A stretch of 64,000 nt of DNA from Rickettsiales bacterium (GTDB lineage Bacteria; Pseudomonadota; Alphaproteobacteria; Rickettsiales; UBA3002): contig CBDFGU010000009.1 of the NCBI GenBank assembly GCA_965247335.1, forward strand, positions 851,243 to 915,242, in the 5' to 3' direction. The notes beneath the pieces were generated by a model. That model did not search any database. It was not told the origin of the DNA and saw only the letters and a program-made list of their open reading frames with translations. A program made the position numbers and the translations under genes. Each line of letters opens with the position of its first letter. Positions within the stretch are counted from its first letter, which is position 1. This document shows, in pieces, positions 11,586 through 30,582 of the stretch.

Positions 11586-14500
11586 CTATATCTCCTCAGC
11601 ACCCTCATATAGCATCGGCGGGATATTATCCTCCGGCCGGTCATCCGGCCAAGATTCCGATAGCGGCAGGTAGAAGCTGCGCGTTGCCTGCTGCTGCTCG
11701 TCAGCGAATACATAGGTCAGCGCGTAATGACGCGTATCACTAAACAGCATTGGCGGATTTTGCGAGACCTGCGTTACAGTCGGCGGCACTGTTGCATCAG
11801 CCACCGGGGATAACACTGGCGGTGCGGGCGGCGGCGGTGCGGCCGGGTCGAAGATCGTCGCGGTCGCCGTCGCACTGCTGTTGAAACTATAGTTCCCGCT
11901 ATCGGTTCCCATTGCCGTAATACCGCTTACGCTGACCGGCTTACCCGTGCCGATCGCCGCATCCGCAAAGCTCGCGCTACCATAGGCAAGGTTCAGCGAA
12001 TCACCGGTCACACGATTATCGCCGAGCGTCACGCTGACATTCGTGGTACCATCATATGCCCGGTCCGCCGCTGAGGCACTGACTGTCAGCGCCCGCGGGG
12101 TGATGGCGGCAGCCGTGCCAGCCGTGGTATTGAACGTGTAATTACCGGCATCCGTGCCTGCAAGCGTGATCCCGCTGACGCTAATCGCCTTGGCAGCGCC
12201 AACATTCTTGTCCATAAAGTTCGCCGTGTAGCCGATGCCGAGCACATCACCCGTCACCCGATTATCACTCAGCGTCACGTCTGCTGTCGTCAGCCCATTA
12301 TACACTTTATCGATGCCGGTCGCGCCGATGGTCAAGGCTTTCGGCGTGATGTTCGCCGTGTCCGTTGCACTGGTATTGAACGTATAGTTGCCACTATCTG
12401 TTCCCGTCACCGTGATGCCGGTCACGTTCACCGTCTTGCCGGTACCGGCATTCTTGTTCGTGAAGTTCGCTGCGGTGTCGGCGATCGCCAGCACATCGCC
12501 AGCGATGCGATCATCACCAAGCGTCGCACTCGCCGTTGTCAGCGCATCATAGATCTTGTCGGCCGCCGTCGCCGTTATCGTTAACGTCCTTTTCGTGATG
12601 TTCGCCGTATCCGTTGCCGTGGTGTTGAACGTATAGTTGCCGCTATCAGTTCCCATCACCGTTATTCCGTTGACTGTAACGACCTTGCTCGACCCGGCAT
12701 TCTTGTTGGCGAAGCTCGCACTGGTATCGTTGATGGTCAACACATCCCCCGCCACGCGATTATCGCCCAGCGTTACGCTGGCGGTGGCAAGACCATCATA
12801 CACTTTATCAAGTGCTGTCGCGCTAACCGTCAGCGCCCGCGGCGTGATATTCGCCGTATCCGTTGCTGTCGTGTTGAACGTGTAGTTGCCGCTATCGGTT
12901 CCCAGCACCGTGATACTATTGACCGTCACTAGCTTGCCATTCGCCACATCCTTATCCGTGAAGGTTGCGCTACCATGGCCAAGTGTCAACACGTCGCCCG
13001 CGACACGGTTATCACCGAGCACGACACTGGCCGTCGTCACACCATCATACACTTTATCAAGTGCTGTCGCGCTCACCGTCAGCGCCCGCGGGGTGATGTT
13101 CGCCGTATCCGTCGCGCTAGTGTTGAAGGTGTAGTTGCCACTATCTATACCCGTCACCGTGATGCCGGTTACATTCACCGTCTTGCCAGCACCGACATTC
13201 TTGTTGGTAAAGTTCGCCGCTGCATCGCTGATCGTCAACACATCGCCAGCAACGCGATTATCGCCCAGCGTCACGCCTGCTGTTGTCAGACCGTTATACA
13301 CTTTATCGACTGCCGTCGCCGTCACGCTCAGCGCGGCTTTAGTGATATTCGCCGTATCCGTTGCCGTCGTATTGAACGTGTAGTTACCACTATCCGCTCC
13401 CGTTACCGTAATCCCACTGATTGTGACGACCTTGTTCGATCCGGCATTCTTGTTGGCGAAGCTCTCGCTCGCATCACTGACGATCAAAGCATCTCCCGCC
13501 ACCCGATTATCGCCCAGCGTTACGCTGACGGTCGTCAACCCGTCGTAAATCTTGTCGGCAGCATTCGCTGTCACGGTCAGTGCTTTCGGCGTGATGTTTG
13601 CCGTATCCGTCGCGCTGGTGTTAAAGGTGTAGTTGCCGCTATCGGTTCCTGTCACCGTGATACCATTGACCGTCACCAGCTTGCCATTCGCCACATCCTT
13701 ATCCGTGAAGGTTGCGCTACCATAGCCAAGTGTCAGCACATCACCCGCGATGCGGTCATCGCTCAATGTTACGCTTGCGGTCGTTAGCCCATCATACACT
13801 TTATCAGCTGCGGTCGTCGTCACGGTCAGTGCTTTCGGCGTGATGTTCGCCGTATCCGTCGCGCTGGTGTTGAAGGTATAGTTGCCACTATCTATACCCG
13901 TCACCGTGATGCCCGTCACATTCACCGTCTTGCCGGTACCGGCATTTTTGTTGGTGAAGTTTGCTGCGGCGTCAGCGATTGTCAGCATGTCGCCGGCAAC
14001 GCGATCATCGCCCAGCGTCACACCCGCCGTCGTCAGACCGTTATATACCTTATCCGCCGCATTCGCCGTTACGGTCAGCGCTGCTTTGGTGATGTTCGCC
14101 GTAGTTCCTGCCGTGGTGTTGAAGCTGTAGTTGCCACTATCCGCCCCGGTGACCGTGATGCCGCTAACGCTCACTGCACGGCCTGTGCCTACATTCTTGT
14201 CGGGGAAACTGGCCGAACCATAGCCAAGCGTCAGCACATCCCCCGCCACCTGATTATCACTCAGCGTGACCGTAGCGGCCGCGAGGCCATCATATACTTT
14301 GCTGATGCCCGTGGCAGCGATCGTCAGCGCGCGCGGGGTGATATTCGCCGTATCCGTCGCCGTCGTGTTGAACGCGTAGTTGCCGCTATCGGTTCCCATC
14401 ACCGTAATGCCGTTGACCGTGACCAGCTTGCCATTCGCCACATTCTTATCCGCGAAGGTTGCGCTACCATGGCCAAGTGTCAATACGTCGCCCGCGACAC

Positions 14501-17500
14501 GGTCATCGCCCAGAACGACACTGGCCGTCGTCACACCATCATACACTTTATCAAGTGCTGTCGCGCTCACCGTCAGCGCCCGCGGAGTGATATTCGCCGT
14601 ATCCGTCGCGCTGGTGTTGAAGGTGTAGTTGCCACTATCTATACCCGTCACCGTGATGCCCGTCACATTCACCGTTTTATTGTTGTTCACATTCTTGTTG
14701 GTAAAGTTCGCCGTTGTATCGTTGATCGTCAGCACATCGCCGGTGACGCGGTTGTCGCCCAGCGTTACACCTGCCGTTGTCAGCGCATCATAAATCTTGT
14801 CGGCTGCCGTCGCCGTTACCGTCAGCGCTTTTTGCGTAATGTTCGCCGTGGTGCTCGCCGTACTATTGAACGTGTAGTTGCCGCTATCGGTACCCGTCAC
14901 CGTGATCCCGCTGACACTGACCGCCCGGCCCGTGCCCACGTTCTTGTCCGGGAAGCTGGCCGCACCATACCCCAGCGTCAGCACATCACCGGCGACGCGG
15001 TTATCACCGAGTGTTACGGTGGCTGCCGCAAGGCCGTCATACACTTTGCTGATACCGCTCGCCGTCACGGTAAGCGCTTTCGCGGTAATGTTTGCCGTCG
15101 TACTCGCCGTGGTATTGAAAATGTAGTTACCGCTATCCGTCCCCGTCACCGTAATGCCGCTGACACTGACCGCTCGGCCCGTGCCCACATTCTTGTCCGG
15201 GAAGCTGGCGGTGCCATATCCGAGCGTCAGCACATCACCCGCCACGCGATTATCGCCAAGCGTCACCGTCGCGGCCGCGAGGCCGTCATACACTTTACTG
15301 ATGCCCGAAGCCGTTACCGTCAACGCGGCTTTGGTGATGTTCGCCGTAGTGCTCGCCGTAGTACTGAACGTATAGTTGCCACTATCCGTCCCCGTCACCG
15401 TAATGCCGCTGACACTGACCGCACGACCCATACCTGCGTTTTTGTCGGGGAAGCTGGCCGCACCATATCCCAGCGTCAGCACATCACCCGCCACACGATT
15501 GTCGCCGAGTGTCACCGTCGCTGTCGCGAGGCCATCATACATTTTACTGATCCCGCTTGCACTTACCGTCAATACTTTTGCCGTGACATTCGCGGTCGTG
15601 CTCGCGGTGGTGTTGAACGTATAGTTGCCACTATCGGTACCCGTCACCGTAATGCCACTGACATTGACCGTGCGACCCGTACCCACATTCTTGTCCGGGA
15701 AACTAGCGCTGCCGTAACCGAGCGTCAGCACGTCACCGGCGATGCGGTTATCGCCGAGCGTCACCGTCGCGGCTGCGAGGCCGTCATACACTTTGCTGAT
15801 ACCCGAAGCCGTTACCGTCAATGCGGCTTGGGTAATATTTGCCGTCGTGCTCGCGGTACTATTGAACGTGTAGTTGCCACTGTCCGTTCCCGTCACCGTA
15901 ATGCTGCTGACGTTGACTGCGCGACCTGTGCCCACATTCTTGTCAGGGAAGCTGGCCGCGCCATAGCCGATCGTCAGCACATCACCGGTAATGCGATTAT
16001 CGCCCAATGTCACCGTTGCGGCTGCCAGGCCGTTATAGACTTTATCAATGCCCGAAGCCGTTACCGTCAACGCGGCTTGGGTAATATTTGCCGTCGTGCT
16101 CGCGGTACTACTGAACGTGTAGTTGCCACTGTCCGTTCCCGTCACTGTAATGCCGCTGACGCTGACCGCACGGCCGGTGCCCACATTCTTGTCGGGGAAG
16201 CCGGCGGCGCCGTAACCCACCGTCAGCACGTCACCTGCTACGCGATTATCACCGAGTGTTACGGTGGCTGCCGCAAGGCCGTTGTACACTTTATTAATAC
16301 CCGAAGCCGTTACCGTCAGGGCTTTCGCCGTGATGTTGGCCGTCGTGCTCGCCGTGGTGTTGAACGTATAGTTACCGCTATCCGTCCCCGTCACCGTAAT
16401 GCCGCTGACACTGACCGCTCGGCCCGTGCCCACGTTCTTGTCCGGGAAGCTGGCCGCACCATACACCAGCGTCAGCACATCACCGGCGACGCGATTATCA
16501 CCGAGTGTTACGGTGGCTGCCGCAAGGCCGTTGTACACTTTATCAATACCCGAAGCCGTTACCGTCAACGCTTTCGCCGTGATGTTGGCCGTCGTGCTCG
16601 CCGTGGTGTTGAACGTATAGTTGCCACTATCCGTCCCTGTTACCGTGATCCCGCTGACATTGACCGTGCGACCCATACCCACATTCTTGTCCGGGAAATT
16701 AGCGCTGCCGTAACCGAGCGTCAGCACGTCACCGGCGATGCGGTTATCGCCGAGCGTCACCGTCGCGGCTGCGAGGCCATCGTATACTTTGCTTATGCCG
16801 GTAGCACTTACCGTCAATACTTTCGCCGTGATATTTGCCGTCGTGCTCGCGGTGGTGTTGAACGTATAGTTGCCACTATCCGTCCCTGTTACTATGATCG
16901 CGCTGACATTGACCGTGCGACCCGTACCCACATTCTTGTCGGGGAAGCTGGCTGCACCGTAACCCAGCGTCAGCACATCACCCGCCACGCGATTATCGCC
17001 GAGTGTCACCACTGCCGCTGCCAAACCATCATAAACTTTGTTGACGCCGGTTGCACTGACCGTCAACGCTTTCGCCGTGATATTTGCCGTCGTGCTCGCG
17101 GTGGTGTTGAATGTATAGTTGCCACTATCGGTACCCGTCACCGTAATGCCACTGACGCTGACCGCCCGGCCCGCACCCACATTCTTGTCCGGAAAGCTGG
17201 CTGCTCCATAACCAAGCGTCAGCACATCGCCACTGATACGGTCATCCCCCAGCGTCACCGCTGCGGCCGCAAGGCCATTATACACTTTATCGATGCCGGT
17301 CGCCGTCACCGTCAGCGCTTTTTGCGTAATGTTCGCGGTCGTGCTCGCCGTACTATTGAACGTGTAGTTGCCACTATCGGTACCCGTCACCGTGATCCCG
17401 CTGACACTGACAGCCCGACCCGTACCTGTATTCTTGTTGGGGAAGCTGGCCGCACCATACCCCAGCGTCAGCACATCACCGGTGACGCGGTTATCGCCCA

Positions 17501-30461: not shown

Positions 30462-30505
30462 GGCAGTAAAAAATGAGCTGCCGTTACCACATTTACAGCT
30501 TGGGC

Positions 30506-30582
30506 TGGTGGTCCCGATGTGATTCGAACACACGACCTAGCGTTTAGGAAACGCTTGCTCTATCCAGCTGAGCTACGGAACC
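30506..30582 (-). tRNA. tRNA-Arg (anticodon CCT)
   Basis: The minus strand folds by hand as GGTTCCG TA GCTC AGCTGGATA GAGC A AGCGT TTCCTAA ACGCT AGGTC GTGTG TTCGAAT CACAT CGGGACC A CCA. This is a 77-nt cloverleaf with a 7-bp acceptor stem (one G-U), a TTCGAAT T-loop and an encoded CCA. Confidence 0.92.

Follow-up and report, generated by a model that had tools for sequence, protein, structure and literature searches.

A type Vb secretion locus encoding a 5,681-residue repeat protein, most likely an adhesin, in a Rickettsiales bacterium

Contig CBDFGU010000009.1 of the Rickettsiales bacterium assembly GCA_965247335.1 carries two adjacent genes, tpsB and tpsA, within the 64,000 nucleotides between positions 851,243 and 915,242 (hereafter the window). 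Judged from family matches and from analogy with characterized systems, this pair very probably forms a type Vb operon whose cargo, most likely an adhesin, is a fibre-like and non-enzymatic surface protein of great length. The assignment to two-partner secretion (TPS) is made because both proteins match Pfam and NCBIfam models at curated thresholds, the two genes are adjacent, and TpsA resembles EtpA, HMW1 and HxuA. A preliminary description, drawn up from the sequence alone, had proposed a TPS locus with a giant repeat adhesin; this proposal held, as family matches were obtained for both proteins and tpsB lies directly upstream of tpsA on the same strand in 50 of the 72 related loci retrieved.

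Evidence for two-partner secretion

The tpsA gene is a single open reading frame (ORF) at 11586-28631 on the reverse strand (17,046 nt, 5,681 codons) that begins with TTG, the sole in-frame start after the upstream stop, and contains zero internal stops; the chance occurrence of an open frame of this length is far beyond expectation. The 559-aa TpsB is encoded 93 nt upstream on the same strand, and both the coordinates and the Pfam matches agree with the earlier placing of a ShlB/FhaC-type transporter ahead of this uninterrupted frame. A consensus scan of the spacer found neither a sigma-70-like site nor a terminator, so co-transcription of tpsB and tpsA fits; promoter and terminator scans around the operon returned nothing above shuffle expectation. 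Mature TpsA is ~557 kDa with a pI of ~4.7, and Thr, Ala, Gly, Asn and Ser make up ~60% of its residues.

The N-terminus of TpsA carries a predicted Sec signal peptide, judged by inspection of the translation, followed by a TPS domain recognized by PF05860 (aa 42-276, 8e-33, 114.8 bits, cut-off 33.5) and TIGR01901 (aa 60-134, 2e-22, 79.1 bits, cut-off 29.1). The TPS region matched the PDB sequences of EtpA (8e-59), HMW1 (2odl, 4.5e-33) and HxuA (4e-29), and EtpA chain 8vba aligned over TpsA aa 22-596 (EtpA residues 60-623, E = 3e-62). HMW1 and HxuA represent a second TPS-domain family that is without the NPNL hairpin, the NPNG turn being general, and filamentous haemagglutinin (FHA) and HpmA carry NPNL-type domains of the first family (PMC5422565). 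EtpA shares the TPS fold of the HMW1/HxuA family, and a motif scan found no NPNL in TpsA. Because EtpA, HMW1 and HxuA are its matches, TpsA is placed in the NPNL-lacking family, and by sequence its TPS domain is a family-2 domain of the HMW1/EtpA/HxuA group. The signal peptide and TPS domain of the preliminary description thus stand, but its reading of LNRV as a substitute for NPNL does not, since family 2 has no NPNL equivalent. The domain is followed by a conserved beta-helix extension in which residues G404, G406, G407, E410, S412, L437, D438 and P439 of TpsA are invariant across 23 homologues.

TpsB matched POTRA_2 (PF08479, aa 73-148, 9e-17, 61.1 bits, cut-off 24) and ShlB (PF03865, aa 304-517, 9e-23, 81.7 bits, cut-off 22.7), with a separate Pfam match for only one of the two expected POTRA domains. 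The nearest solved chain is CdiB (6wim, 2e-14 over aa 59-499), and in the alignment the barrel motif FVDYG of TpsB stands opposite ALDGG of CdiB. These matches identify TpsB, by its sequence family, as an Omp85/ShlB-type transporter with a POTRA domain. The POTRA_2, ShlB and TPS models, together with the YDG model discussed below, all score above their curated cut-offs, as the preliminary description had anticipated.

Since CdiB is the closest solved relative of TpsB (2e-14), TpsA could be a toxin-delivery protein of the CdiA/BcpA type acting in contact-dependent inhibition (CDI), and one paper places type Vb (T5b) hemagglutinins with MBG/YDG domains in a CDI system. However, a motif scan of TpsA found no VENN, ELYN or NEALV-type pretoxin motif, and the C-terminus consists of YDG repeats, a Pro-rich stretch and an acidic tail (87 aa) without a family match. 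The next gene is a convergent M48-family peptidase with no immunity-sized ORF downstream of tpsA, and the TPS domain groups with EtpA, HMW1 and HxuA. We regard a CDI function as highly improbable. The ShlB family name derives from haemolysin systems, which would fit a pore-forming cytolysin or haemolysin of the ShlA/HpmA/ExlA type. Cytolysins of the ShlA type are ~1,600 aa long and lack immunoglobulin (Ig)-like arrays, but the TpsA passenger comprises a 3,300-aa solenoid and 25 stalk repeats. HpmA, the sole cytolysin placed in PMC5422565, has an NPNL family-1 TPS domain, and NPNL is absent from TpsA. A cytolytic role deserves as little credence as CDI.

An adhesin exported by two-partner secretion would, by analogy with FHA/FhaC, HMW1 and EtpA, cross the inner membrane by Sec. 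As in other TPS systems, the unfolded TPS domain would dock on the POTRA domains of TpsB, and the chain would thread through the TpsB barrel, with folding of the beta-helix on the outside driving export. At 20-25 residues per 0.48-nm coil, the shaft (~3,300 aa) would roughly span ~60-80 nm, and a reach of similar extent but greater flexibility would come from the YDG array.

Architecture of the passenger

The preliminary description divided the passenger into three tiers, and this division was recovered, starting with the GGFIETSG...WLLDPADITI region at aa 406 and 435. In the second tier, 14 NGTRPSW-type anchors between aa 611 and 3011 delimit modules at two periods, as described earlier: seven long intervals, six short ones and one degenerate last copy (Table 1). 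A hidden Markov model (HMM) built on the short module finds matches at both ends of every long module, at its start and, with strong scores, over its last ~75-85 aa. At the sequence level, long modules thus consist of the short-module core interrupted by ~145-185 aa of inserted sequence. No Pfam or NCBIfam match was found in the module stretch (~2,300-2,400 aa). From an alignment with the six other long modules, AlphaFold2 predicted for long module 2 an all-beta structure of 28 short strands with a predicted local distance difference test (pLDDT) score of 90.8. The long NGTRPSW module is confidently modelled as a beta-solenoid, an outcome of the single-module structure check suggested in the preliminary description.

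The shaft ends in a cap that includes both cysteines, C3315 and C3321, and matches no Pfam family. This cap is kept in relatives P0143-P0158, P0012 and P0035. In TpsA the cysteine pair lies 2,360 aa from the C-terminus; in members of the same clade without YDG units, the cap is within ~70-180 aa of the C-terminus, which is where HMW1 and CdrA carry their cysteine hooks.

The third tier had been described as 25 MBG/YDG units. The count of 25 stands, but by Pfam the units are YDG (PF18657, 25 stretches, 1194.2 bits, cut-off 25), and MBG_2 gave a single sub-threshold match upstream of the array. All but one of the units (24 of 25) are exactly 83 aa long, the other being 82 aa. Sub-family A comprises units 1-13 and 16 and sub-family B all the others; within B, units 14-23 follow a three-unit super-repeat (14/17/20/23; 15/18/21; 19/22). 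DNA identity between units is 61-97%, with a longest exact repeat of 161 nt. The similarity of unit 12 to unit 1 (94% identity) and of unit 13 to unit 2 (97%) suggests that two units were recently duplicated at a distance of 11 units. The YDG and MBG_2 Pfam families go back to the "Periscope protein" study, which established them on repeats of surface proteins; YDG serves as a stalk-domain marker for fibrillar adhesins, and a rhizosphere survey found MBG/YDG domains to be predominant or common on T5b cargo. On the strength of its family, the YDG array is best read as a stalk or reach element. The units have no PDB sequence match, and an Ig-like fold is thus not confirmed.

The protein closes with a Pro-rich stretch and an acidic tail for which no Pfam match was found, and no tail homologue appeared among matches to the last two YDG units plus tail. 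A PxTV-x3-(S/T)Q(N/G) motif after the Pro-rich stretch, for which there is no Pfam model, recurs at the C-termini of P0012, P0024, P0030 and P0143-P0162. Many members end in an LTIDPxL...(W/Y)xF-type motif; TpsA itself ends in the acidic ...EEI and its orthologue P0143 in ...GDI. Pfam and NCBIfam scans of the whole protein found no enzyme domain.

We tentatively propose, with low confidence and by analogy, that the cap (RWLIYS...C-x5-C...NG(M/L)LYS), the PxTV-x3-SQN motif and the terminal tail constitute a retention or maturation device, and that MBG/YDG arrays of 0-25 units between cap and tail tune reach. Such a device may be analogous, not homologous, to the HMW1/CdrA cysteine hook and the FhaB prodomain, and TpsA may be the extreme case in a large, uncharacterised family-2 branch. 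Speculatively, either the Pro-rich stretch and tail or the Cys loop could tether TpsA to TpsB, as in HMW1 and CdrA, and YDG copy number could set reach, as in periscope-type proteins.

Several observations weigh against an exported adhesin with this architecture. No recognisable ligand-binding head domain was found in TpsA by Pfam and NCBIfam scans. The NPNG turn, reported to be crucial for folding and secretion, reads NQNG in TpsA (aa 110-113), where the consensus of 23 homologues is NPNG; several homologues, including P0002, P0004, P0008 and P0143, share the variant. Loop 6 of TpsB reads GRAF instead of VRGY/F, standing opposite VRGF of CdiB with the Arg retained. None of the 23 window ORFs outside tpsA and tpsB gave a family match to an HMW1C/EtpC-type glycosyltransferase, which leaves the analogy with EtpA incomplete; TpsA contains 179 NxS/T sequons against ~120 expected from composition, a count that the repeats make non-independent. 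A Foldseek search of the module 2 model against the PDB returned no significant match (best E = 0.2), the top structures being TPS-domain beta-helices, so for this module only "beta-solenoid" is supported and no family. For two tandem YDG units, AlphaFold2 given an alignment of the remaining units produced an unusable model (pLDDT 34). Finally, a single assembly underlies the repeat copy numbers; the sole conspecific contig found ends 311 codons into tpsA.

The missing head domain also favors a different role, in which TpsA would act chiefly as a scaffold for matrix or aggregation after its release, or as a steric "periscope" spacer that alters the reach of the surface, in the manner of CdrA or SasG and without a single specific ligand. 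YDG is classed as a stalk repeat, the orthologue has one YDG unit against 25 and one long module against seven, and CdrA is listed among the TPS adhesins that bind exopolysaccharide (PMC5422565). However, the contrast of 1 versus 25 YDG units is between species and not between strains, and the identity of the repeats (61-97% in DNA) is below that of the most variable periscope arrays. Although the present data do not separate a scaffold or spacer from specific adhesion, we consider it clearly the less probable of the two, and an adhesin remains the preferred function.

Table 1. Features of the tpsB-tpsA locus and its immediate neighbours, in window coordinates
Feature	Coordinates	Strand	Remarks
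M48-family peptidase gene	10546-11481	+	Convergent to tpsA; 3' end 104 nt from tpsA stop
Pro-rich stretch, PPTVTQVSQN, acidic 60-aa tail, aa 5595-5681	11586..11849	-	Then stop codon; 87 aa in all
25 YDG units, aa 3521-5594	11850..18071	-	Period 83 aa (249 nt); PF18657, Tandem Repeats Finder (TRF) period 249
Two divergent MBG-like units, aa 3336-3520	18072..18626	-	MBG_2 PF18676 E = 0.0012, 19.8 bits, cut-off 25; same region in P0143
C-x5-C pair, C3315 and C3321	18669..18689	-	Sole cysteines of mature TpsA; conserved in relatives
Degenerate 14th module and shaft-end cap, aa 3011-3335	18627..19601	-	Ends GRWLIYS...RYSCTYGGSCPALGTGNGMLYS
Six short NGTRPSW modules, aa 2403-3010	19602..21425	-	100-103 aa each; HMM 133-151 bits per copy
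Seven long NGTRPSW modules, aa 611-2402	21426..26801	-	244-287 aa each; 55-71% identical to module 2
Conserved beta-helix extension, aa 277-610	26802..27803	-	GGFIETSG (aa 406), WLLDPADITI (aa 435); aligns to EtpA 8vba
TPS secretion domain, aa 42-276	27804..28508	-	PF05860 and TIGR01901; NQNG at aa 110-113
Predicted Sec signal peptide, aa 1-27	28551..28631	-	n-region RQTFFKR, h-region LVILACALIAL, AFA then NP
tpsB-tpsA spacer	28632..28724	-	93 nt, AT-rich; AGG-containing stretch just upstream of TTG (sequence read)
tpsB	28725..30404	-	Predicted Omp85-family outer-membrane transporter; N-terminal signal peptide (inspection), POTRA_2 aa 73-148, ShlB barrel aa 304-517
tRNA-Arg(CCT)	30506..30582	-	ARAGORN and Rfam; neighbour, not shown to be part of the system
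176-aa ORF	30704-31234	+	Ala/Ser/Thr/Lys-rich, between tRNA-Arg and putA, no family match

Integrity, relatives and residency of the locus

Giant repetitive frames can be produced by assembly artefacts, in copy number or by chimeric joining, or may be decaying pseudogenes. The 249-nt units do make a repetitive array, and the conspecific contig (L082, ENA ERZ26165376), which is 98.5% identical over window 27697-42694, confirms tpsB, the tRNA and the 5' end of tpsA but breaks off 311 codons into the gene. Searches for the 3' part of tpsA in independent sequences yielded no second copy: a degenerate DNA pattern for the tail gave nothing in JGI metagenomes, a protein-guided scan with the cap/MBG region gave one distant locus (L083, 44% identity, with a different tail), and a protein query made of the final two YDG units and the tail gave, among the matches listed, YDG only at up to 68% identity. 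A homologue elsewhere is possibly split into two ORFs: the 487-aa TPS-domain fragment P0002 and the 2,592-aa P0144, which is without an N-terminal TPS domain, are both reported from an NCBI contig of 67,798 bp, and this tpsA homologue may have been split by a frameshift or sequencing error. Against an artefact or pseudogene, the 17,046 nt contain no stops, and the YDG units keep their length almost without exception. Differences between units fall mostly at third codon positions (10,286, versus 3,747 and 3,316 at the other two), and the 13 most similar units show 2,184 synonymous versus 805 non-synonymous codon differences; this third-position bias points to a translated sequence under purifying selection. 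Since the longest exact repeat is only 161 nt, the array is resolvable by long reads, and the source contig is 2.35 Mb. The domain order is also reproduced in P0143. An artefact or pseudogene is accordingly very improbable, and the tpsA locus is judged real and intact.

Relatives of the TpsA N-terminus are numerous. The N-terminal 620 aa have hundreds of homologues, the best 54-58% identical, and at least 592 loci in GTDB species representatives encode an N-terminal relative (best GTDB match 48-50% identity), spread over Proteobacteria, Nitrospinota, Bdellovibrio-like bacteria and others. The modules are rare: HMMs of the long and short modules gave zero matches in 80 related GTDB loci, and the long-module profile found 95 proteins at E<=1e-3 and 16 at E<=1e-30 among 1.84 billion representative proteins. 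Long TpsA relatives came only from this exhaustive search of representative proteins; among the matches listed, the N-terminal search held none above 1,082 aa, with P0143 absent, and the C-terminal search none above 438 aa. The module clade consists of TpsA proteins of 1,400-3,100 aa that have the cap, at most 20 short modules and between 0 and 9 YDG units, and TpsA of the window is the longest and most expanded. The passenger architecture, left unassigned in the preliminary description, is not unique, as a small clade shares its modules, cap and YDG units. The JGI name "trimeric autotransporter adhesin" given to two TPS-domain relatives, P0154 and P0156, finds no support in their domain content, and the shaft of P0154 holds a long Gly-rich insert.

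The best module match is the orthologue P0143 (MFZ4541227.1, 2,173 aa), from a Rickettsiales bacterium metagenome-assembled genome (MAG) and annotated by PGAP as [quoted passage not shown]. Its locus (L081) has the order tpsB, tpsA, M48 peptidase, icd, DUF378, xerC, DUF484, transaldolase and priA, which is syntenic with the window, and its flanking genes are 66-85% identical in nucleotide sequence to those of the window, indicating a different species. The orthologue also shares the order of TPS domain, module(s), cap with C-x5-C, MBG-like region, YDG, SQN motif and acidic tail. It differs in having one long module, ~9 short modules and one YDG unit, whereas TpsA of the window has seven, six and 25, so that the comparison across related genomes shows 2,173 versus 5,681 aa, a 2.6-fold difference in length. 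The two sites also differ upstream of tpsB, where L081 has moeA and no tRNA and the window has tRNA-Arg and putA.

This comparison bears on whether the locus is a recently acquired genomic island at tRNA-Arg. The tRNA-Arg, the only tRNA in the window by ARAGORN and Rfam, has its 3' end facing tpsB at a distance of 101 nt, and GC content is ~0.61-0.63 in the middle of tpsA versus 0.55-0.58 in the flanks. Yet there is no direct repeat of the tRNA 3' end (att-like) at the other border and no adjacent integrase, the nearest recombinase being of xerC type and syntenic in the relative, and the tpsB-tpsA-M48-icd order occurs in L081 without a tRNA. GC content at third codon positions (GC3) is 0.74 in tpsA versus 0.77 in icd, and the raised GC follows from the Gly/Ala/Thr-rich composition. 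An island origin is therefore doubtful in the extreme. Because the far border lacks a copy of the tRNA 3' end, the syntenic locus is without a tRNA and GC3 is host-like, we conclude that the tpsBA locus is lineage-resident and that its adjacency to tRNA-Arg is incidental. The preliminary description had placed the tRNA-Arg correctly; its label of a "clearly accessory" system was overstated, as the same site is found beside M48, icd, xerC and priA in the related genome.

The locus is flanked by the M48 peptidase gene and icd on one side and by tRNA-Arg, the 176-aa ORF and putA on the other. The remaining window genes are housekeeping genes (icd, putA, lpd, sucAB, rho, hemH, hemE, aroE, the atp operon and a porin), in keeping with the earlier view of an otherwise housekeeping window. 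The M48 profile matches only the C-terminal ~80 aa of the peptidase ORF, and the first ~70 aa seem to result from an overlong ORF call; an M48 peptidase gene also adjoins tpsA in L081. Long antisense ORFs across tpsA are the usual by-product of its composition. At the site of the 176-aa ORF, the annotation of the conspecific contig L082 has a 125-aa gene, and at 3579-6715 of this low-coverage contig putA is annotated as two separate genes (472 and 572 aa), where the window has a single 1,045-aa ORF; the split is probably a frameshift error of that assembly. In a more distant alphaproteobacterial MAG (L005, 14790-17900), tpsB-tpsA abuts putA downstream, whereas putA of the window lies upstream, beyond the tRNA; this adjacency may be coincidence or a remnant of older synteny. 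Window 5333-6704 (~1.37 kb, in the gap between transaldolase and DUF484) has no counterpart in L081, where these genes are ~160 nt apart. It contains an ORF at 5338-6498 on the reverse strand (386 aa, GTG start) with no Pfam or NCBIfam match.

Significance and comparison with known systems

The analysis provides an annotation for a 17-kb gene that makes up ~0.7% of the 2.35-Mb contig, and for the only evident surface-interaction system in the window. In this uncultured alphaproteobacterial lineage, whose closest relatives are MAGs assigned to Alphaproteobacteria or Rickettsiales, tpsA is a candidate for whatever the cell attaches to. A Micavibrio-like predator, considered at first, was not supported by the relatives of AtpD. 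The mechanism class of TPS, the YDG repeats and the combination of TPS with MBG/YDG are already described; what is new is the size (5,681 aa, ~557 kDa), a rare solenoid module without a family model and the 2.6-fold length gap to a syntenic orthologue. The NGTRPSW module could become a family model, and the cap, Cys pair, SQN motif and tail recur in many TpsA proteins with no assigned role. As a whole, the find extends the catalogue of such proteins and opens no new question.

Among solved structures the best match is EtpA/EtpB of enterotoxigenic Escherichia coli (ETEC; 8vba, 8cpk), a family-2 TPS system with an elongated three-sided beta-helix and the transporter gene placed first. The repeat modules of EtpA, ~230 aa in the alignment, are similar in size to the long NGTRPSW modules, but beyond aa ~600 the repeats of the two proteins are unrelated in sequence. 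EtpA is ~170 kDa with four C-terminal repeats and no Ig-like array, whereas TpsA has 25 YDG units, and the operon of EtpA includes the glycosyltransferase EtpC, which is needed for efficient secretion and is lacking in the window. HMW1/HMW2 of Haemophilus influenzae (2odl) belong to the same TPS family and are likewise adhesins with a repeat-containing passenger. HMW1 is tethered via a C-terminal disulfide loop. In TpsA, by contrast, the Cys pair is far from the C-terminus, no HMW1C-like gene is nearby, the gene order is unlike hmw1ABC and the protein is several times longer.

FHA of Bordetella (FhaB-FhaC system) is also a giant beta-helical TPS adhesin. In FhaB, a Pro-rich region and a conserved extreme C-terminus form part of a prodomain that stays in the periplasm. 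The C-terminal Pro-rich stretch of TpsA and its tail find their closest analogue in this prodomain, although no sequence similarity between the tails was found. FHA differs in being a family-1 TPS protein with NPNL and no YDG array, whereas TpsA is without NPNL. The tandem, near-identical ~83-aa units and their copy number of 25 versus one in the orthologue resemble the stalks of periscope proteins and fibrillar adhesins; the classic examples, however, are sortase-anchored Gram-positive proteins with an N-terminal binding head, whereas the array of TpsA is C-terminal to a TPS beta-helix with no head evident.

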